Positions 41,066 to 64,000 are shown, numbered from the stretch's first letter. The stretch: DNA of 64,000 nt from a virus (IMGVR_UViG_3300045588_000033:27511-91510), one strand, 5' to 3'. Program-made: numbers and translations. Notes: generated by a model not told the origin, from the sequence alone.

Positions 41066-41683
41066 TTAATTGAATTCCCCACTTGGCTCTAGTTTGCTAT
41101 CGGTATAAGCAAATTCTTTAAGCATATTATTGTCTAACTTTTCCACATCTCTATCTATAATAGGCCAAACTTCTTGGTCATATAAATACGCAGGAGCTGT
41201 AGGAGAAGATAATCTATCTTCCCAACTATCTTTTAGAGACTCAGATTTATTTAATATCAATGGCAGCGTAAATGCTTTACCAGAAAAGAAGTGATTACTA
41301 AGAATTAATTTCTTAGCAACAGCACTTATCTCTGAATATTTGCCATTTAATATTAAAGTATAATCGGGTAACATTTCTTCGGACACTGCATACACCATAA
41401 TAAGATAATTATTCTTCTCATAGGAATCCCTATAATTAGGAAATGCTCTCATTGTGGTGTAAAATGTTTCAAAATCTACATCTCGGTAATTCTTAATCAA
41501 TAAAAATATACAATTTTCTCTATACAAAGCAACGTTCTCATCAAATAAATAAGAGTTTATAAATCTTAGAGTAAACATTTGTTTACCTAAAATAGTTTTA
41601 ACATTGCAAGTAAATAGTGCTTTAGGAATTTCTAATAATGGAAACAAAAAGGTAGAAGTTTTAGTATATTTAACTAAACTCAT
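41066..41683 (-). CDS. Conserved crAss-like hypothetical protein
   Basis: TKTSTFLFPLL...GKYSEIS...EVW; lies between the exonuclease and UDG-like genes. Confidence 0.55.
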   Translation of the reverse strand: MSLVKYTKTSTFLFPLLEIPKALFTCNVKTILGKQMFTLRFINSYLFDENVALYRENCIFLLIKNYRDVDFETFYTTMRAFPNYRDSYEKNNYLIMVYAVSEEMLPDYTLILNGKYSEISAVAKKLILSNHFFSGKAFTLPLILNKSESLKDSWEDRLSSPTAPAYLYDQEVWPIIDRDVEKLDNNMLKEFAYTDSKLEPSGEFN

Positions 41684-42693
41684 ACTTCAATATTTAGTTT
41701 GCCTCCATTTTTATAATACTCCATGGGAAATTTCCAAGCATTATTATCTAATGCATATTGCAGTCTGTCTAAAGCATCAATAAAACCTTCTAGTTTTCTG
41801 CCGTTGCTTAAAGTCCCACCGTGAAATCCTATCTCCATTACGTCTGCATCTACTTCAAAAATCATAGGATCATTGTGCAAATTAGTTTCAACTACAATAT
41901 ACAGAAAATCTGCAACTGTGTAACCGTTATCCCATAATTCTTTTACTTTAGGATGTTGTAGTAAGCCCCAAGAGTACACAGTAGCTTGGAAATCATAGCG
42001 GTAAGTAAAGAATTCATATTGAAACCCAGTAATAGGTTTACCCGTAGTTTTAAAGTCAATCGGAGTTATAATTTTATCAGTGTGATTTACACAAACTCTG
42101 TCTAACTCTCCTTTTAAATCAAATCCTTTAAAGTTAAATTCTATAATAAACTTATCCCAGAATTCTACGTTTTTATCATGTTTTCTATCTACATACGGCT
42201 TAGTAAATTCATCAGACTTAAGAGCCATTACACAACTTAAAGCTTTAGCATACTCAGTTTCTGTAATAGTAGTCTTGCCTTGAGTAGTCTTTAATAGCTC
42301 AAAATAATCTTTACCGTCTACTAGAATTTTATCTATTCTAGTATCATCTTTCCAATTATTATAATAGCCTACATTGTTGCAATGTTTAAGAATTACATTT
42401 CTATCTACACTTACAGTTCCTCCTAATGCTGCCATCTCTGCAAAAACTCCATCTACGATAGCCTTTACTGCCTCACTACACTTAGACTCATCAGGTATTT
42501 TAACAAACTTCTCCTCAAACTCGTCCTTAGATCCTACCAACATTATATCTACAACACTGCCAAACACAAAATGAGGAGCGATAGACTGCTCCCCATTTTC
42601 TTGTTTTTCTTTTGCTTTTAGATATTCTTTAGGGCTTGTAAGTATCTTTTTAAGGATACTTTGATTCAACTTTTTAATATCTCTATACTCCAT
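41680..42693 (-). CDS. PD-(D/E)XK exonuclease (RecE/DUF3799-like)
   Basis: LKGELD..PIDFKTT..YRYDFQATVY; FGSVVD. Confidence 0.8.
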   Translation of the reverse strand: MEYRDIKKLNQSILKKILTSPKEYLKAKEKQENGEQSIAPHFVFGSVVDIMLVGSKDEFEEKFVKIPDESKCSEAVKAIVDGVFAEMAALGGTVSVDRNVILKHCNNVGYYNNWKDDTRIDKILVDGKDYFELLKTTQGKTTITETEYAKALSCVMALKSDEFTKPYVDRKHDKNVEFWDKFIIEFNFKGFDLKGELDRVCVNHTDKIITPIDFKTTGKPITGFQYEFFTYRYDFQATVYSWGLLQHPKVKELWDNGYTVADFLYIVVETNLHNDPMIFEVDADVMEIGFHGGTLSNGRKLEGFIDALDRLQYALDNNAWKFPMEYYKNGGKLNIEV

Positions 42694-46650: not shown

Positions 46651-47832
46651 TTAAAGTTCTAATTTTATTACTTTCCCAGGAAGGGCTTCATTCATACTTG
46701 ATTGTTCAGACAATACCCATAATACTTTCTTTGAAGGCTTTTTATTAGTATAACATTCACCATCAGTGAAATATATTAAACTAGTAAATTGTGTATTTTT
46801 TTCAAAATAATCTAATACGGGGTCAAATTCTGTCCCACCTCTACCAGATATTTTTAATTCAAACTTGCCTTTGTAATCTTCAATACTGTGAATTTCAGTA
46901 TCACATTGAACAATAGTAATCTCTACACCTGCTTTGTAAATATGATATATTTCATTCATAAATTCTCCAAGCTCTTGAGTACTAACAGATCCAGAGGTAT
47001 CAATAGCTAATAGCATCTTTTGTCTCATTTTAATTTTAAGACCAGGATTACCTTCGTATCTTTTATTCTCTTTTCTGCGTATCTTCTTAGTAAATACCTT
47101 TGTGCTAATTCCAGTAAATCTTCTAATATATCCCTTCCAATCAAATTTTGGAGGTAATATTACATCTAATTGAATTAGATCGTTCATCTCACCAGGAACA
47201 ATACCTTGCTTCTTTAAAGTCTGTTCTTTAGCGGTGCCTAAGAGCCTTTGCGTTTGCTTGTCTATTAGCTTTTGCTCTGCCTCAGATAAATCTTCGAACT
47301 CGTCCCATGTGCTATGGTCAGGCAGACCTTCACCGTCACCGTCCATTTGGTCACATAATTTATCAAATGCATCACTGCCACTAGTACCAGTTTGATCTTT
47401 TTTATCCTTAGCTTGCTTAAGCTTGTCATAGTAATATCTACAACCTGCTTTTCTATCTAAATTTAATTCTGGATATTTGTCAATATCAATGCCTCCTGTA
47501 GGTAACCATTCAGGAATAATATATTGATTAATCTCCATATCCATAGCTACATTAGCTAATTGTCTATCACTAAATTTAAATACAGCACTCAAATGGCCAA
47601 AAGCAATATGCAAAAGCTCATGTTTTAGAAGACCTAATCTATGGTCTTCCGATAACTCTTCCCAAAAAGTAGGATTAATGACTAGCTGATAATTTATTCC
47701 TTGTTTACCAACGCCAGCCGTGGGTACTCTTGTGTACCATAATTTATTTAATAAAATGAGAAAGAACCCGTAATAGGGCTCTTTCATCATTAAATCTTTA
47801 CTAGTTTTACTTAATGTGTCCGCTCTATTCAT
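46651..47832 (-). CDS. Metallopeptidase plus vWA domain protein (DUF2201-like), MoxR partner
   Basis: HELLH zinc motif; MIDAS DTSGS..GGT..FTDG. Confidence 0.85.
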   Translation of the reverse strand: MNRADTLSKTSKDLMMKEPYYGFFLILLNKLWYTRVPTAGVGKQGINYQLVINPTFWEELSEDHRLGLLKHELLHIAFGHLSAVFKFSDRQLANVAMDMEINQYIIPEWLPTGGIDIDKYPELNLDRKAGCRYYYDKLKQAKDKKDQTGTSGSDAFDKLCDQMDGDGEGLPDHSTWDEFEDLSEAEQKLIDKQTQRLLGTAKEQTLKKQGIVPGEMNDLIQLDVILPPKFDWKGYIRRFTGISTKVFTKKIRRKENKRYEGNPGLKIKMRQKMLLAIDTSGSVSTQELGEFMNEIYHIYKAGVEITIVQCDTEIHSIEDYKGKFELKISGRGGTEFDPVLDYFEKNTQFTSLIYFTDGECYTNKKPSKKVLWVLSEQSSMNEALPGKVIKLEL

Positions 47833-50174: not shown

Positions 50175-50849
50175 TTAAATTGAATAATATTCTCTTATGA
50201 CTGCGTTTACCTCTACTAGATCATTATCTACTAGAGCTTCTTCAAACATTTCAATAGGAGTTTTGCACGTATCTGTACCAGAATTTAAGGTTCTAAATAC
50301 GTGACGATTTGGTGCCCCAGGTGTCTTTACAATTTCTGCATAAAACACAATAGAACTAAAGCTTTCAGGCACAAAGCGCTCAAGCATCCGTCCCTGTACA
50401 CCGATTCTTTCTGTAGAGAAACCACCATCATCATAGTGAGTTTCTGGATGAGCAAATAAATATACAATGATATCTTCTCTTAATTTATCATTAATGATAT
50501 TAATTAAGTCATATTGATTAGCGGCAAATTTGCCATACTTATCAAAACCTTTTTCTGCTCGAAAAGAAGGATTCATTACTGCATCTGTCATTATACGACT
50601 CCATGTGTCGATGATAACAGTTTTGATTTTTTTATTACCATGTGCCCGCTTTAAGGTACCAATTACTACTTGCACATCAGAAGTCTTGACATAATTGTCA
50701 TTCTCTTCATTGTACTTTAAGTTAAATTGTTTAAACGGAAGCGCTTTTTGATCCGTATTAATGATAATTGTTTCCTCTGGATTTAGGTTCCGTAATGAGG
50801 TAGATTTTCCTGTGCCGCTTTTTCCAACGACAAACACGAGTTGACCCAT
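50175..50849 (-). CDS. AAA_24/Sak4-like ATPase (single-strand annealing recombinase family)
   Basis: GKSGTGKSTS Walker A, VIIDT Walker B, AHPE, CKTP motifs. Confidence 0.75.
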   Translation of the reverse strand: MGQLVFVVGKSGTGKSTSLRNLNPEETIIINTDQKALPFKQFNLKYNEENDNYVKTSDVQVVIGTLKRAHGNKKIKTVIIDTWSRIMTDAVMNPSFRAEKGFDKYGKFAANQYDLINIINDKLREDIIVYLFAHPETHYDDGGFSTERIGVQGRMLERFVPESFSSIVFYAEIVKTPGAPNRHVFRTLNSGTDTCKTPIEMFEEALVDNDLVEVNAVIREYYSI

Positions 50850-54663: not shown

Positions 54664-55344
54664 CTATTTATAATTTTTTAATATCCAATCCGCAAATAGT
54701 ATTAATTCTTCAGACGTTGCTGAATTTTTCATACTATTAGCCTTTTTTGTAATAATTTGTACATTACTTTTTGTGTATCCTAAATTGTTATCAATTCTAT
54801 CCAAGGAAGGAGTGTGCTCATAATTTCCTTTAATTCCTGATATAAAAGGAATTTTAAGAATAGGACACAAATCAGGAACAACAATATCTTCTTTAGTTAG
54901 AGTAAAAGCTAGATTTTTTTTAACCGCTCTACGTTTAGCATTTGCTAACATAACATTTTTAAAATGTATCCTACTATTTAATTTTTTTTGTTCATTGATT
55001 TTTTTCCTATACTCGAAGTCTACACTCATTCTTTCTTTTTTATTTTGATTAGATTGAACATAATACTTTTTTTGAACTCTAGTAGAATTAGAACATTCTT
55101 TGCACCATGTATGCAGTCCTCCTATATGTCTAGGATTTTTAGCAAAATCTTCAGAATTTTTTATTTTCTTACAATGATTGCATTTTTTTTCTAATAAAGC
55201 GACTTCATACCTTACACTTAGTCTTTTTTCTTTTTCACACATTTTACAATGACCTGTACGGCCATCTAAAGTTTGAGTATGTTTAGGAAATTCTGTTAAT
55301 TCTTTTTGTAATTTACATTTTGTACAAATTTTCATATTGTGCAT
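54664..55344 (-). CDS. Intron-encoded HNH/His-Me-finger endonuclease with tandem CxxC zinc fingers
   Basis: CTKC/CKMC, CNHC/CKEC, then CPIL..PSLDRIDNNLGYTKSNV..AN..K; real start 55344 or 55335; sits in the L8 loop closed by AATCTATTTA/TAAATAGATT. Confidence 0.8.
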   Translation of the reverse strand: MHNMKICTKCKLQKELTEFPKHTQTLDGRTGHCKMCEKEKRLSVRYEVALLEKKCNHCKKIKNSEDFAKNPRHIGGLHTWCKECSNSTRVQKKYYVQSNQNKKERMSVDFEYRKKINEQKKLNSRIHFKNVMLANAKRRAVKKNLAFTLTKEDIVVPDLCPILKIPFISGIKGNYEHTPSLDRIDNNLGYTKSNVQIITKKANSMKNSATSEELILFADWILKNYK

Positions 55345-59312: not shown

Positions 59313-60347
59313 TTATTTTTTTCTTGTAACTGTTAATACTCCATCATCCAATGTCCAATCATAATCAGTATTTAAAAAGAATGAACTTTTATACTTATCT
59401 GTAGAAGGTAATCCAATAAAAGAGTCATATCCTGATTTATTACTTTCTCCAAATACAGAAATTCCATCAACTTTAAAATTAATATCATCTGACTTAAAAT
59501 TTAATTCTTCAGCCTGTTTACCAAATATATTTGCAAGTACTGCTGTCTGACTAAGACTAGCTGCTTTAAACATTTCACTTACTTCTGTTTGAGTAAACTC
59601 AATAGTATTTCCAAATGGATTTCTTCTTGAATATTTAAGAATTGTTTCTTTCCATTCACTACATGCTACATCATAAATCTTTTGTAATTGTTCTCTTGTA
59701 ATTGTGTAATTTTTCATTGTTTCTTTTGTTTTAGTTTCTGTTCCATTTACTATTTCATCCCATTCTTCTAGTGATAAGATTGTGTCAAAAGCATCTTCAG
59801 AAGAATAATTATTTAATTCTTCATATATACTAATACCATAATATGGCCAATCTAAAGACTTACCAACAACACTCGCATTAAATTTTTTATTCAACCATTT
59901 AATATACTTGTCCCATAACTCTTGATTAGTATTTGTACAAGCAAAGGACTTTGGTAGTTTTTTTACTAATATTAGATCACATTCATATACACCCCGATCA
60001 TCTTTAGGGAAATATATATGCTCACACTTACCTTTCTGAATGAAATCCACTATAAATTTTTTACCTGGTTTATATCCAAGGGCATGTGATTTGATTGCTG
60101 CTCCATTTTCAACACATTGTACTCTATCTCCTATTTTAAATTTTTTCATAACTTCTTTAACTAAGTGTTTCTCAATTTGATCTACTGGATAGTTCCAAGA
60201 AGCAGTAGCAAATTCAATTCTAACTCTTTTTAATACTGCACTTACACTAATAATTTCTCCTATTTCACCAATATGTTTATCCATTGATTCATTATAGTCA
60301 CCTTCAAACTTAAAACCTCTTACTTTTTTTCCTACTAAATCTTCCAT
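59313..60347 (-). CDS. Multi-module hypothetical protein
   Basis: Start corrected to the TAATG overlap at 60347; internal module starts MKKFKIGDRV and MKNYTITREQ. Confidence 0.55.
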   Translation of the reverse strand: MEDLVGKKVRGFKFEGDYNESMDKHIGEIGEIISVSAVLKRVRIEFATASWNYPVDQIEKHLVKEVMKKFKIGDRVQCVENGAAIKSHALGYKPGKKFIVDFIQKGKCEHIYFPKDDRGVYECDLILVKKLPKSFACTNTNQELWDKYIKWLNKKFNASVVGKSLDWPYYGISIYEELNNYSSEDAFDTILSLEEWDEIVNGTETKTKETMKNYTITREQLQKIYDVACSEWKETILKYSRRNPFGNTIEFTQTEVSEMFKAASLSQTAVLANIFGKQAEELNFKSDDINFKVDGISVFGESNKSGYDSFIGLPSTDKYKSSFFLNTDYDWTLDDGVLTVTRKK

Positions 60348-60775
60348 TACTTTTCTTTTACAATTTCTATTAATTTCTTTAAACAAGCAAGTTCTGCTTC
60401 TTCGTAAGTATTATGTTTATCAAAATATTTAGGAATATGATAAGGAACTATTTTATTCTGTCTTGAATCATGTCTATTTTCCTCTAAAATTACATTACTT
60501 CCAAAAAATTCAAAACCTTTATTTATTACATGATGTAAATTATAATTATCCCTAAACCATCTAAAGCATTGTGTGAATGTTGGTGCAGTAAAACAATCGT
60601 TATTAAAAACTTTAACAATGTTTGAATTGTTACAAGGTTTAGATGTCCATTTTTTGTAAGTTTCTGGAGCTATCTGTAAGTCTTTTGTTTCGGCAAACCA
60701 AGCAATACAAGGTTCATCAAATCCAAGTTCTTTAAGCTCTAATGCTTCTGTGTAATCTACAAATTCTTTTTCCAT
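60347..60775 (-). CDS. Hypothetical protein
   Basis: MEKEFV..LKELGFDEPC..APT..FRWFR..TYEEAELACLKKLIE. Confidence 0.6.
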   Translation of the reverse strand: MEKEFVDYTEALELKELGFDEPCIAWFAETKDLQIAPETYKKWTSKPCNNSNIVKVFNNDCFTAPTFTQCFRWFRDNYNLHHVINKGFEFFGSNVILEENRHDSRQNKIVPYHIPKYFDKHNTYEEAELACLKKLIEIVKEK

Positions 60776-61044
60776 TACTTTTGTTTTAATTGTTCTCCTG
60801 TTAGTATAAAATACAGATTCTGTAACTGGTGTACATATCTAAATAATTCTATGTCAGGTGCTATACCTATATCATCTTCATGTCCCATAATACCAATTGA
60901 GAAGTCATCGCAATATGCCAATAAGAAGTCTTTATGCTTTAACTTATAGTCTACCCCAAAACAATCTTCTGAGTTGTATACTATTTTCTCAAATCCAAAA
61001 CTCAAGAGTAACTCTTCAGTTAAGGGAATATTTTCTTGTTCCAT
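60775..61044 (-). CDS. Hypothetical protein
   Basis: IPLTEELL..FGF..YVHQLQNLYF.LTGE. Confidence 0.6.
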   Translation of the reverse strand: MEQENIPLTEELLLSFGFEKIVYNSEDCFGVDYKLKHKDFLLAYCDDFSIGIMGHEDDIGIAPDIELFRYVHQLQNLYFILTGEQLKQK

Positions 61045-61045
61045 C

Positions 61046-61246
61046 TTATTCTGATTTAATTTTTTCGTTGTAATATTGTTCTGCTTTATTTTCTTTGCTT
61101 TTATCCCATTGGTCGGTCACAAATCCTTTATTAAAAGCATCAATTATCTGTTGCTTCTCCATTGCTTTGGCATGTTCATATTCCGATATTGTAATATTTC
61201 CCTTGTGTTCGTACATTTTATTGTACAACCATTCTATTGCTGTCAT
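61046..61246 (-). CDS. QTAVEW-family small protein
   Basis: MTAIEWL..AKAMEKQQIIDAF..AEQYYNEKIKSE; start 61246 or 61267. Confidence 0.6.
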   Translation of the reverse strand: MTAIEWLYNKMYEHKGNITISEYEHAKAMEKQQIIDAFNKGFVTDQWDKSKENKAEQYYNEKIKSE

Positions 61247-61253
61247 GTTGTCT

Positions 61254-61433
61254 TTATTCAGATTCATTTGTACAAGCTAAAACAGCCATGCCTAACACGA
61301 TACCTATAAAAGATGATATAAGCTTACTTGCAACAGTTTGGTGATCAAATCCCCCCATTATGTACATAGAACATATATGTACTGCTAAAAATGTAACTAA
61401 GAAAGCTACTATATTTTTTGTTAATCTATTCAT
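61254..61433 (-). CDS. Small two-TM membrane protein
   Basis: Start at the junction ATG 61433 (MNRLTKNIVAFLV...). Confidence 0.55.
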   Translation of the reverse strand: MNRLTKNIVAFLVTFLAVHICSMYIMGGFDHQTVASKLISSFIGIVLGMAVLACTNESE

Positions 61434-61434
61434 C

Positions 61435-61572
61435 TTATTCTGATTTAGGTGGAAAATATGTTCCACATTCATTACATAAAAACTCTTCTACTGGTTTTTC
61501 TTTTTTACTCCAATCTAAATTAGCATGAATGTTTTCACACTCACCACAATTAGGACAACATTTTGCTTCCAT
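61435..61572 (-). CDS. Small zinc-ribbon protein (45 aa, not in ORF track)
   Basis: Hand translation MEAKCCPNCGECENIHANLDWSKKEKPVEEFLCNECGTYFPPKSE; bounded by junction motifs. Confidence 0.65.
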   Translation of the reverse strand: MEAKCCPNCGECENIHANLDWSKKEKPVEEFLCNECGTYFPPKSE

Positions 61573-61573
61573 T

Positions 61574-61786
61574 TTATTCTGTTTTAAAAGTTTGTTGTTT
61601 ATCTGCTAAATATTTTTCATGACATCCTTCAATTAGAATGCATACACCTATGCCGATTCCAAAAATACAAGCATATACAATTCCTTGTTTACCTTCATCT
61701 TTATCTAATCTAAAAGATAATATAAGTCCTATACATAATCCTAACATTATTTCACTTACCAAAAATAAAAATTCATAATTTTTCAT
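61574..61786 (-). CDS. Small two-TM membrane protein
   Basis: Start at the junction ATG 61786 (MKNYEFLF...), ends TFKTE. Confidence 0.55.
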   Translation of the reverse strand: MKNYEFLFLVSEIMLGLCIGLILSFRLDKDEGKQGIVYACIFGIGIGVCILIEGCHEKYLADKQQTFKTE

Positions 61787-61787
61787 C

Positions 61788-62009
61788 TTATTCTGATTTA
61801 AAGGTTTCTTCCCAATGTGATTCAAATGTTTGCCAATTATCTTCAGCAATACCCTTACCCTCAAACCTACCTGCTTGATGTGCAGTGTTCCATGTTGTAA
61901 CTATCTGCTCCTTTTCCATTTCTTTGACTTGTTTAAATACTTCTGATAAACTAAATTCTTTATCATCGTAAATAATTTCTTCTAACCACTCTACTGCTGT
62001 TTGTTTCAT
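61788..62009 (-). CDS. QTAVEW-family small protein
   Basis: MKQTAVEWL..KEMEKEQI..ETFKSE. Confidence 0.65.
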   Translation of the reverse strand: MKQTAVEWLEEIIYDDKEFSLSEVFKQVKEMEKEQIVTTWNTAHQAGRFEGKGIAEDNWQTFESHWEETFKSE

Positions 62010-62010
62010 G

Positions 62011-62226
62011 TTACTCTGTTTTAAATGTTTCGTTATAATATTGTTCTGCTAATTTTTTATTGGTATCACTAAAAGATTGTGAATCGAATTCAGACTGCCC
62101 ATTTATATGCGAAATAATTATTTGTTGCTCAAACATTTGTTTAGATTTTTCAATAGCGTGCAAATCTTTAAGCCCAATGCTTTCTTTTAATTCATTTACT
62201 AACCATTCCACTGCTGTTTGTTCCAT
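62011..62226 (-). CDS. QTAVEW-family small protein
   Basis: MEQTAVEWL..KQMFEQQII..AEQYYNETFKTE. Confidence 0.65.
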   Translation of the reverse strand: MEQTAVEWLVNELKESIGLKDLHAIEKSKQMFEQQIIISHINGQSEFDSQSFSDTNKKLAEQYYNETFKTE

Positions 62227-62244
62227 GTTATTTTGTTTTAAAGG

Positions 62245-62631
62245 TTAGTTAGCATATTTCCATTCAAATCCACCTGCTGTACCTTTTTCTTGTTTTAAAA
62301 TAGTAGACATGTTATTTTTTGTAACTCCATTTTTTTCACAAGCGGTTATAATATTTTCATAACTACATATATAAGAGCCATTATAATATTTAGAGACAGG
62401 TTTACAAAATGATTTACTTGGAATCACAGTTACATCACCAATTCTATTAACAATTCTAGCTCCATCAGAATATCTCCTAAATTGTTTATTTATTGATGTT
62501 AAAGTATGTCCAATAATTGTACTGTTGATAGAACCTCTTGGTGCTTTTAATTGTATTTCTAATTCTCTAACTGTATTTACATCAAATACTTCTAATAAGT
62601 GACCTTCAAGGTCATACATTGCTATTTTCAT
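62245..62631 (-). CDS. NUMOD1-like DNA-binding domain protein (two repeats, no nuclease domain seen)
   Basis: IAMYDLEGHLLEVF...; KPVSKYY.G.YI..Y.NI..A...TAGGFEWKY. Confidence 0.65.
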   Translation of the reverse strand: MKIAMYDLEGHLLEVFDVNTVRELEIQLKAPRGSINSTIIGHTLTSINKQFRRYSDGARIVNRIGDVTVIPSKSFCKPVSKYYNGSYICSYENIITACEKNGVTKNNMSTILKQEKGTAGGFEWKYAN

Positions 62632-62632
62632 T

Positions 62633-62857
62633 TTATTTTGTTTTAAAGGTTAATTCTTCTGTTAAAATAGCGTTCATTTCTTTTTGTGATTCAAGTTCGG
62701 CTTCAAGTTGAATGATTCTATCAATATTAAATTCTTTGATTCTTTTTTCATACACTTGAATTTGTGCTTGTTTAGATACTATTATTCGTTTTAAAGCAAA
62801 AAATTGAATTTTCAAGCCTTCATAAGTTGCGTGGGGTTTTGCATTTTCTAATTCCAT
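62633..62857 (-). CDS. Small coiled-coil protein
   Basis: Heptad-like sequence ending LTFKTK. Confidence 0.55.
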   Translation of the reverse strand: MELENAKPHATYEGLKIQFFALKRIIVSKQAQIQVYEKRIKEFNIDRIIQLEAELESQKEMNAILTEELTFKTK

Positions 62858-62858
62858 A

Positions 62859-63077
62859 TTATTTTGATTTAAAATCCTTATTCATGTGTTTAATCAAATA
62901 AAATTCACAATTCCAATCCTTATGTTTGTTCCCATGCCACCCTGCTCTAAAATCATTTTTTCTTTGCTCATCTTCCATTTCTTTGGCTTGTTTAAACAAC
63001 TCTTTAAACTTTTGATTAGTTATTAATTGACCACCTTTGATTTCACCCGCAAACCATTCTACTGCTGTTTGTTCCAT
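62859..63077 (-). CDS. QTAVEW-family small protein
   Basis: Start at the junction ATG 63077: MEQTAVEWF..QAKEMEDEQ..DFKSK. Confidence 0.6.
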   Translation of the reverse strand: MEQTAVEWFAGEIKGGQLITNQKFKELFKQAKEMEDEQRKNDFRAGWHGNKHKDWNCEFYLIKHMNKDFKSK

Positions 63078-63078
63078 C

Positions 63079-63540
63079 TTATTTTTTATTAAATTTTTCG
63101 TTGTAGTATTGTTCTGATGTATTATATTCACCATCCATACCATCAAGATATGCTGTACGTATTATTTCCTTCTCCATTTCTTTGGCTTGTTCATATACTT
63201 TACTTATTTTATCCCATTCGCTTGGGTACAATTCAAGAATGTTATCTAATTCTTCATATAATAATTCTACTGCTGTTTGTTCCAATCCTTTCGTTTCAAT
63301 TTCTTTGCCGTTAAAACCATTATACCACCCACGCATATATTCCGAGTGATTTTGTAGTTTTTCTAATTCTAAAAGATTAATTAATTCTTGCTTAAAACTA
63401 ACCAATCCAATCTTCATTCCATGATGCCTACTCGTTGAAGTTTCATCCCTAACTTTTGATGCTTCAATTCTACACGCTTGAGCAATTTCTATTTGCTCAT
63501 CTATTTTTTCAATTGCTTTTTGTATTACTGTCTTTTCCAT
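63079..63540 (-). CDS. Fusion of a MEKTVIQ module and a QTAVEW-family module
   Basis: Internal LEQTAVELL..QAKEMEKEII..SEQYYNEKFNKK. Confidence 0.6.
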   Translation of the reverse strand: MEKTVIQKAIEKIDEQIEIAQACRIEASKVRDETSTSRHHGMKIGLVSFKQELINLLELEKLQNHSEYMRGWYNGFNGKEIETKGLEQTAVELLYEELDNILELYPSEWDKISKVYEQAKEMEKEIIRTAYLDGMDGEYNTSEQYYNEKFNKK

Positions 63541-63541
63541 C

Positions 63542-63769
63542 TTATTCTGGTTTAGCGTATTGAAGATATTGATAAAATTGATGCTGCTCCCTGGTTAAAT
63601 TTTCATTGTTCCAGTCTTTTGGTTCTACAAAATTATATTGTTTTTTCAAAAATATAATTTGTTTTTCCGAATCTTTTTGTAGTTTCTCTTTTAAAAGAAA
63701 ATACCCTACCGCCCCATAAGATACCATAAGGGCGGTAAGAATAAAATTGATTATTGTTTTATTTGACAT
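63542..63769 (-). CDS. Small single-TM protein
   Basis: Start at the junction ATG 63769 (MSNKTIINFIL...), ends AKPE. Confidence 0.55.
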   Translation of the reverse strand: MSNKTIINFILTALMVSYGAVGYFLLKEKLQKDSEKQIIFLKKQYNFVEPKDWNNENLTREQHQFYQYLQYAKPE

Positions 63770-63770
63770 A

Positions 63771-64000
63771 TTATTTCTTTTTAAATTGTTCAAACCATTG
63801 CTTTGTTGTATCTCCTAAATTAGAAGTTTTATTAGAAGATAAATCATATCTATATTGTTGTAAAAATTTTATAACTTCTTCCTCACTATACATTTTTTCT
63901 TGTTGGTATTTAGCGCCTTGAATAAAAATCTGTCTGTCGTCTTCATTAGAATCTTCCATTGGATTGTAAGAGTCATTAATAAGCCTTGGATACAACCTCA
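63771..64000 (-). CDS. Partial small hypothetical protein
   Basis: GAKYQQEKMYSEEEV..WFEQFKKK; frame probably runs off the window end. Confidence 0.5.
   Translation of the reverse strand, partial: RLYPRLINDSYNPMEDSNEDDRQIFIQGAKYQQEKMYSEEEVIKFLQQYRYDLSSNKTSNLGDTTKQWFEQFKKK

Follow-up and report, generated by a model that had tools for sequence, protein, structure and literature searches.

The window analysed here is a 64,000-nt stretch of DNA (bases 27511-91510; G+C content, 33%) of a 91.5-kb virus record, IMGVR_UViG_3300045588_000033. At its far end, the minus strand carries an array in which about a dozen small genes are joined by a short stop-restart linker of ~22-24 nt, and this linker is the subject of the present analysis. 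The DNA polymerase of the phage shares 37-40% identity with those of crAss-like phages, and closer relatives are numerous in the IMG/VR database (polymerase identity, 73-99%). The genes and linkers of the array are listed below in window coordinates, with numbered positions given relative to the start codon, scores from a position weight matrix (PWM) and assignments from hidden Markov model (HMM) searches; QTAVEW designates a protein family described below.

63771-64000 (-): 3' part of a gene ending in ...WFEQFKKK, with its 5' end outside the window and past the end of the contig; the tail corresponds to the second common linker allele
63767-63788 (-): linker 1, coding; tail FKKK, TAA, 1 nt, ATG (PWM 15.1)
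63542-63769 (-): 75-aa predicted membrane protein, non-QTAVEW, tail AKPE (no PHROG match)
63538-63559 (-): linker 2 (PWM 18.3)
63079-63540 (-): 153-aa protein, the C-terminal half of which is a QTAVEW domain (HMM E value, 7e-14)
63075-63096 (-): linker 3 (22-mer match, PWM)
62859-63077 (-): QTAVEW gene, 72 aa (HMM)
62855-62876 (-): linker 4 (22-mer match, PWM)
62633-62857 (-): 74-aa coiled-coil-like protein, non-QTAVEW, tail TFKTK (translation; no PHROG match)
62629-62650 (-): linker 5, the left copy of the pair flanking gene X (22-mer match)
62245-62631 (-): gene X, stand-alone NUMOD-like DNA-binding protein, 128 aa, ending in ...WKYAN and its own TAA
62224-62247 (-): linker 6, non-coding; stop of X at -21, 18 untranslated nt, ATG
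62011-62226 (-): QTAVEW gene, 71 aa (HMM)
62007-62028 (-): linker 7 (22-mer match, PWM)
61788-62009 (-): QTAVEW gene, 73 aa, modelled as three helices (HMM, structure model)
61784-61805 (-): linker 8 (PWM 25.7); its part from -17 through the ATG is the allele shared by at least 120 contigs of IMG/VR
61574-61786 (-): 70-aa predicted membrane protein, non-QTAVEW, tail TFKTE (no PHROG match)
61570-61591 (-): linker 9 (22-mer match, PWM)
61435-61572 (-): 45-aa zinc-ribbon-like protein, tail PPKSE
61431-61452 (-): linker 10 (22-mer match, PWM)
61254-61433 (-): 59-aa predicted membrane protein; degenerate linker downstream, with a 7-nt spacer
61046-61246 (-): QTAVEW gene, 66 aa (HMM)
61042-61063 (-): linker 11; the array difference from the relative L331 has its right-hand breakpoint here
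60775-61044 (-): 89-aa gene ending in ...EQLKQK, TAATG overlap (phrog_10066)
60347-60775 (-): 142-aa gene, TAATG overlap with the next gene; absent from L331

A preceding sequence-only reading of this DNA had reported that eleven gene boundaries share one sequence. The eleven 22-mers quoted in it are all present exactly, each quoted coordinate being the G of an ATG on the minus strand, and the weaker variants that it listed are real: the one at 61254 has a 7-nt spacer, and those at 60773 and 60345 are TAATG overlaps. Every unit of the array is a single minus-strand gene, as had also been stated. The junction was recovered independently by a repeat search as repeat D4 (8 copies of 19 nt with at least 84% identity), together with a second repeat, D2 (6 copies of 30 nt), and the extended junction pattern is confined to 88.5-91.3 kb of the genome (61.0-63.8 kb of the window) on the minus strand. 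When the eleven sites were scored with a PWM by leave-one-out, they obtained 9.3-24.4 bits, whereas the maximum among 103 other gene starts was 11.6 bits (mean, -16.6). In a fixed register, the array starts contain 20 bits of information, compared with 3.4 bits for the other starts. The junction pattern is real and strongly non-random; no occurrence of the linker sequence was found in the literature searched.

Several other statements of that reading stood in part. A TAA, one nucleotide and an ATG were said to mark each junction; this spacing was found at 10 of the 14 array boundaries and at 4 of 99 boundaries elsewhere, but not at every boundary of the array, where two of the 14 have a TAATG overlap. 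The junction at 62224 contains the 22-mer but is non-coding, the gene at 62245-62631 stopping at its own TAA (-21). Genes outside the QTAVEW family do carry tails of this kind (e.g. TFKTK and TFKTE), as proposed for unrelated proteins, but five of the genes concerned are QTAVEW paralogues according to the HMM search. The motif is indeed missing from the core genes as far as the full linker is concerned, although a TAAA ~14 nt upstream of the start and an A at -3 recur there.

These recurring elements belong to the translation start region. A TAAA beginning at -16 to -12 precedes 52 of 94 non-array genes (~7 expected), A is frequent at -3 in the same set of starts, and there is no G-rich Shine-Dalgarno peak; TAAA at this position is a genome-wide start signal of this phage. 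In the linker, TAAA lies at -14 to -11 and A at -6 and -3, and the frequencies of A at the array starts are 0.89 at -13, 0.97 at -12, 0.89 at -6 and 0.97 at -3, with G being rare. The start region of Flavobacterium johnsoniae, described from ribosome profiling and reporters (Baez et al. 2019, PMC6847099), has an A run at -14 to -11, and A-13, A-12, A-6 and A-3 were positive determinants in the reporter tests; all four are present in the linker. The array starts have as little secondary structure as the other starts, with a folding energy of -1.7 kcal/mol at the former and -2.6 at the latter, compared with -5.3 in internal coding windows. By analogy with F. johnsoniae, the linker would be a Shine-Dalgarno-less, Bacteroidia-type start region of the downstream gene, and the matching start context is what favours the function as a translation start that had been ascribed to the junction.

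In the array region, 25 sigma-70-type promoter-like sites (33.9 expected) and 1 terminator-like site (1.0 expected) were found, none of them at a junction, and a repeated sigma-70 promoter or terminator was rejected as an explanation of the motif because such sites are not in excess. For the same reason we infer a single polycistronic message: the array is probably read as one long transcript in which a single nucleotide separates each stop from the start that follows, and termination-reinitiation at the linker probably couples the translation of successive genes. Because this tight spacing forces the start region into the last five codons of the preceding gene, the upstream proteins end in Phe-Lys-Ser/Thr-Glu/Lys.

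The same relationship between tail and start is seen beyond the window. In other contigs, the C-termini of QTAVEW proteins fall into a few discrete types, each encoding the start context of the next gene, namely the window type, the TTTAAACAACAAGAACA-ATGA overlap type, the ...FKNK type and the ...TYGG[DE]K type. The last of these is present in five contigs (L038, L043, L057, L071 and L085), where a GGAGG Shine-Dalgarno sequence and an ATGA overlap encode the tail; at the sequence level, such contigs are a clear case of a downstream ribosome-binding site dictating the upstream C-terminus. Examples of the ...YGG[DE]K type are located at L085:3700-4261 and L106:3960-3990. Another uniform junction (FKNK tail, TAA, 4-nt spacer GATT, ATG) occurs at L102:4380-6965 at no fewer than eight gene starts, some copies being non-coding. 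The L080 homologue of the gene at 60775-61044 ends in ...ELTFKSE followed by the linker, whereas the window copy ends in ...EQLKQK with a TAATG overlap. Judging from such pairs, the tail goes with the start signal rather than with the protein.

The QTAVEW family has five members in the window (63079-63540, in the C-terminal half; 62859-63077; 62011-62226; 61788-62009; and 61046-61246), with HMM E values of 1e-13 to 1e-17. Its members share an N-terminal M-x-Q-T-A-V-E-W motif, a central AKEMEKEQ and a C-terminal YYNETF. The family is modelled as three helices (pLDDT, 83), and the model has no fold match in the PDB, nor does the family match any Pfam or PHROG profile. The DNA pattern of the QTAVEW N-terminus matched at least 120 IMG/VR contigs, and the family as a whole is found in several hundred IMG/VR contigs, frequently in tandem arrays. 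Among all the array proteins, searches with Pfam and PHROGs gave no significant match except phrog_10066 for 60775-61044 and a weak C-terminal match for gene X; a near-identity search of the array and a protein search with one QTAVEW member, both against GenBank phages, gave no match. Boundaries between two QTAVEW genes have ~65 nt in common, not 20, according to the repeat search. The repetition of the motif might, in principle, reflect nothing but a translation signal and paralogy, i.e. a convergent Shine-Dalgarno-less context multiplied by QTAVEW duplication, with no role as a module or a crossover site. The five paralogues and their long shared boundaries fit this explanation, as do the A-rich core that is used genome-wide and matches the published determinants, and the use of TCA for Ser in the tail could reflect selection that favours A and disfavours G or T; we nevertheless regard it as unlikely in view of the distribution and codon usage of the linker.

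At least 120 contigs of IMG/VR contain the 21-mer of linker 8 without a mismatch, in coding as well as non-coding forms; by a rough estimate based on base composition and an assumed collection of ~1e11 bases, less than one chance occurrence would be expected. The contigs are 4-220 kb in length, and most have no other nucleotide similarity to each other. Of 158 copies, 55% end a QTAVEW gene, 27% end another open reading frame (ORF) and 18% are non-coding; in the non-coding copies, the upstream gene's own TAA mostly abuts the CC of the linker directly. The genes that follow the 158 copies belong to 69 unrelated clusters. At loci picked independently of the linker, codon usage in the tail differs from that in the bodies of the same genes: all 33 Ser codons of the tails are TCA (34% in bodies) and, of 30 Thr codons, 23 are the rare ACC (10% in bodies; p about 1e-15), while the tail stop is TAA in 31 of 34 cases and the spacer is 1 nt in all 34. 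Selection for A-richness could account for TCA but cannot account for ACC, which is also retained in the non-coding copies. Upstream ORFs (at least 35 codons) stop at -4 (161), -14 (36, using the TAA within TTTAAA) or -21 (27), which together make up 224 of 236, and elsewhere in 12 cases. The three fixed stop positions indicate that the linker module terminates genes arriving in any reading frame, and the sequence-only reading's idea that any cassette dropped in is expressed is consistent with this arrangement.

Conservation of the tail at the protein level alone was rejected on the basis of the non-coding copies, the stops in three frames and the frozen synonymous sites, and strictly genome-specific concerted evolution was rejected because a few linker alleles are shared across phages. 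Convergence on an A-rich initiation context, which the sequence-only reading had named as the competitor of its cassette hypothesis, describes the core of the linker well (A-13, A-12, A-6 and A-3, in genome-wide use) but is insufficient alone, because synonymous sites are frozen, non-coding copies exist and an identical 21-mer is present in so many contigs. An explanation by signal and paralogy meets further obstacles: ACC at -19 to -17 is rare, is not A-rich and persists without being translated, other phages join the same families with different uniform junctions, the core genes of this phage start without the linker, and indel breakpoints fall inside it (see below). These comparisons support the view that the linker exceeds a convergent start signal and represents an inherited, copied DNA module.

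Homologues of the gene at 63771-64000 that share both its tail and its linker DNA were found in L014, L028, L088, L113 and other loci. Gene X behaves differently from the genes with coding linkers in that, in all phages, it ends in ...WKYA[N/x] with its own stop, followed by the local junction type of that phage. The two linkers flanking it in the window (linkers 5 and 6) differ by 1 mismatch in 23 and are the most similar of the 55 linker pairs, and the architecture of linker 6 recurs in L080, L137, L152, L154, L155 and L326. Gene X is extremely common in these phage regions and has a near-constant length (127-131 aa across L122-L185). It resembles the DNA-binding part of homing endonucleases; its homologues carry PF22083 and PF07453, the C-terminal part of X itself weakly matches phrog_20162, and no nuclease or recombinase domain was detected in X.

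Comparison of related contigs supports a role for the linker as a crossover point. In the metagenome contigs L154 and L155, which are 95-99% identical and have the linker at every boundary, L155 contains an extra 830 nt (3 genes), and the alignment blocks overlap by 26 nt in L154, this overlap being the linker. The second pair, L298 and L300, comprises crAss-like relatives of the window phage whose flanks are 97-99% identical; a block of 770 nt with 3 genes is present in L298 and missing from L300, and here too the linker constitutes the overlap, which measures 19 nt. Whole-gene indels thus break inside the junction in both pairs, in agreement with the proposal that it serves as stop codon and crossover site at once and with the expectation that breakpoints between relatives fall within the motif. 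An all-versus-all comparison of 291 loci yielded 41 overlap-type indels; among their 31 distinct overlaps, those of 16-36 nt are mostly start-region junctions of various alleles. A second comparison with 366 loci and looser cut-offs yielded 119 such indels, two of them at this linker allele. Other junction types also coincide with indel breakpoints.

The hyperplastic stretch of the window lies between two conserved anchor genes and the polymerase, as judged from 19 relatives. In this set, linker-type starts (PWM score of at least 12) were found at 31 of 413 variable genes but at none of the 63 conserved genes, i.e. those present in at least 10 of the 19 relatives (Fisher p=0.01). The relative L331 has a polymerase 99% identical to that of the window phage, yet possesses ~7 genes where the window has ~16. 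One breakpoint between the two lies at linker 11, the sole linker breakpoint for the window itself. The array sits in a long minus-strand gene block upstream of the replication genes, and collinearity with L331 indicates that this block resumes at the opposite end of the contig, which suggests that the two contig ends are neighbours. The record is classed as linear by IMG/VR with a completeness of 69% by CheckV, and bases may be absent at the very end of the window. Small genes at the contig start, outside the window (genome 332-2933, minus strand), apparently precede the array across the contig ends and are joined by other tight junctions, e.g. TTAAGTA-n-T-ATG and TAAnATG.

The breakpoints bear on two further explanations. 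In the first, the junction would be a site for an early-message regulator (a repressor or RNase like T4 RegA/RegB, or a phage RNA-polymerase promoter) by which the small genes are switched jointly. Nucleotide conservation beyond the needs of a start site and the restriction of the junction to small variable genes of the early region are what such a site would predict. We consider it improbable, since no candidate regulator was identified, the occurrence of the 21-mer in many otherwise dissimilar contigs makes a phage-specific factor less likely, promoters of the sigma-70 type are not in excess, and the breakpoints inside the motif are left unexplained. In the second, a dedicated integron-like cassette system, a recombinase would use the junction as an att site and mobilize one-gene circles. 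One gene per unit, a uniform junction, upstream stops in all three frames and a NUMOD-type gene that many phages carry between copies of their local junction type recall such a system, and the sequence-only reading had drawn the analogy to an integron. The analogy did not hold: a search of the whole 91.5-kb record with the tyrosine and serine recombinase profiles PF00589 (Phage_integrase) and PF00239 (Resolvase) gave no match, with positive controls, in a record that is perhaps only ~69% complete; no local inverted repeats were found at the junctions by the repeat search, and the junction windows fold only with -1.7 kcal/mol; and other replacements occur where there is no junction. With neither recombinase nor hairpins, an integron was rejected. 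Gene X lacks a detected nuclease or recombinase domain, the junction sequence around the same genes varies between phages, and the breakpoints resemble simple repeat-to-repeat exchange, so that a dedicated cassette system appears very improbable. In the alignments, the exchanges have the appearance of ordinary recombination over short homology and not of the site-specific capture of cassettes.

The phage encodes proteins that could carry out exchanges of this kind.

50175-50849 (-): Sak4-like single-strand annealing protein (phrog_2872, E 4e-65)
41680-42693 (-): exonuclease VIII-like protein (phrog_412, E 1.6e-25)

These two proteins make up the phage's own recombination module and would be plausible catalysts of short-homology exchanges, with the exonuclease as the presumed partner of the annealing protein. 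Two further minus-strand genes of the replication block encode a 393-aa protein with an HNH endonuclease PHROG match (46651-47832; E 2e-62) and a 226-aa protein with endonuclease VII and HNH PHROG matches (54664-55344), and may be mobile or DNA-processing genes, as judged from their matches.

Taken together, the array is probably a hyperplastic early-gene region of a crAss-like phage in which a stop-restart linker has roles in both translation start and recombination. The linker would be inherited and copied with small genes, QTAVEW being its commonest carrier and the linker the natural C-terminus of that family. As the only sequence that is repeated throughout the region and is always in register with the gene boundaries, it would allow whole genes to be added, removed or swapped, with expression kept, by homologous or annealing-type recombination between its copies, a process that the Sak4-like protein and the exonuclease may mediate, with no dedicated recombinase. 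The two competing explanations of the sequence-only reading each catch half of the truth. A bolder and more tentative extension is that the linker is a horizontally spreading universal adaptor, a homology 'socket' common to many Bacteroidota phages that are otherwise unrelated, including crAss-like ones; as it would end an upstream gene in whichever frame and restart translation, single genes might be exchanged through it in register between co-infecting phages without an integrase, its exact sequence being kept by gene-level selection for mobility and not by translation alone.

Several observations weigh against assigning the linker both roles. Five of the 11 window genes that end in or abut the linker are QTAVEW paralogues, and much of the local uniformity is attributable to tandem duplication or shared ancestry of these genes. 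Homogenisation within the genome is weak (identity of 0.51 within and 0.46 between loci; the observed value was attained in 3 of 500 permutations). For this allele, no more than two clean in-linker indels were found, and neither is in the window. The replacement that distinguishes L078 from L100, in which four tandem QTAVEW genes and one more gene of L100 stand where L078 has a single unrelated gene, took place at gene starts, with breakpoints exactly at the ATGs and no linker in L078, and at 59.3-60.8 kb the window and L331 differ by a replacement without a linker on one side. With 19-26 nt of homology, the linker is close to the minimum that Red-type systems need for efficient homologous recombination. 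Because deletions can arise between repeats of any kind, its part in crossover need not have been selected for and may be incidental.

If both roles apply, the linker offers crAss-like and other Bacteroidota phages a concrete route for the gain and loss of small early genes with expression kept, and early genes with fast turnover are a likely home of anti-defence and host-takeover functions. A start signal that dictates the C-terminal peptide of the upstream protein would explain why one family ends in Phe-Lys-Ser-Glu beside Shine-Dalgarno-less starts and in Tyr-Gly-Gly beside GGAGG starts. In practice, the linker is a ready marker for hyperplastic regions in metagenomic phage contigs and may be of use as a compact element for stopping and restarting translation in polycistronic constructs for Bacteroidota, in which parts based on Shine-Dalgarno sequences fail. 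The main interest lies in one linker being common to so many phage contigs.

Among known systems, integrons share with the array one-gene units in one orientation, a recurring site between them and genes without promoters of their own, but the array has no IntI, attC hairpin or attI/Pc, nor any sign of site-specific exchange. Translational coupling by abutting or overlapping stops and starts (ATGA, TAATG and TAAnATG) is similar in that a single nucleotide separates stop from start and the start signal lies inside the 3' codons of the upstream gene, and its Shine-Dalgarno-type counterpart, in which a downstream Shine-Dalgarno sequence constrains the upstream C-terminal codons, is seen in the QTAVEW family itself; the signal embedded in the linker differs in being A-rich, free of a Shine-Dalgarno sequence and kept as one and the same module in genes and phages that are unrelated. 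Cellular start regions of Bacteroidia (PMC6847099) likewise have an A run at -14 to -11, A at -6 and -3 and low structure, but are degenerate, whereas the linker is a fixed 21-24-mer with stop codons and with positions that have no known role in initiation (CC at -18/-17 and C at -9). According to the modular theory of lambdoid phages, homologous recombination at short shared sequences at gene boundaries generates mosaic genomes (summarised in PMC3029335). Boundary sequences are rarely identifiable at mosaic joints, in contrast to the single sequence found here in at least 120 contigs, which would in addition have a defined stop-plus-start function.

The closest parallel is provided by the PeSLs of T4-type phages, a repeated expression signal that mediates modular shuffling in hyperplastic regions (Arbiol et al. 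2010, PMC2839356; Comeau et al. 2014, PMC4122927). In both systems, small variable ORFs of hyperplastic regions are separated by copies of a short conserved expression signal, indels between close relatives break within the repeat (here in L154/L155 and L298/L300), and an inserted gene brings its own expression signal with no dedicated recombinase. PeSLs are ~100-bp intergenic elements composed of a sigma-70-like early promoter and a stem-loop terminator, i.e. transcription signals, whereas the linker (22-26 nt) is four times shorter, has no promoter, terminator or hairpin, would act in translation and lies mostly inside coding sequence, so that it fixes a C-terminal peptide. Mini-circles have been demonstrated for PeSLs. 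By this comparison, the linker appears to work most like the shuffling of regulatory cassettes by PeSLs, with a translational linker in place of the promoter and terminator.

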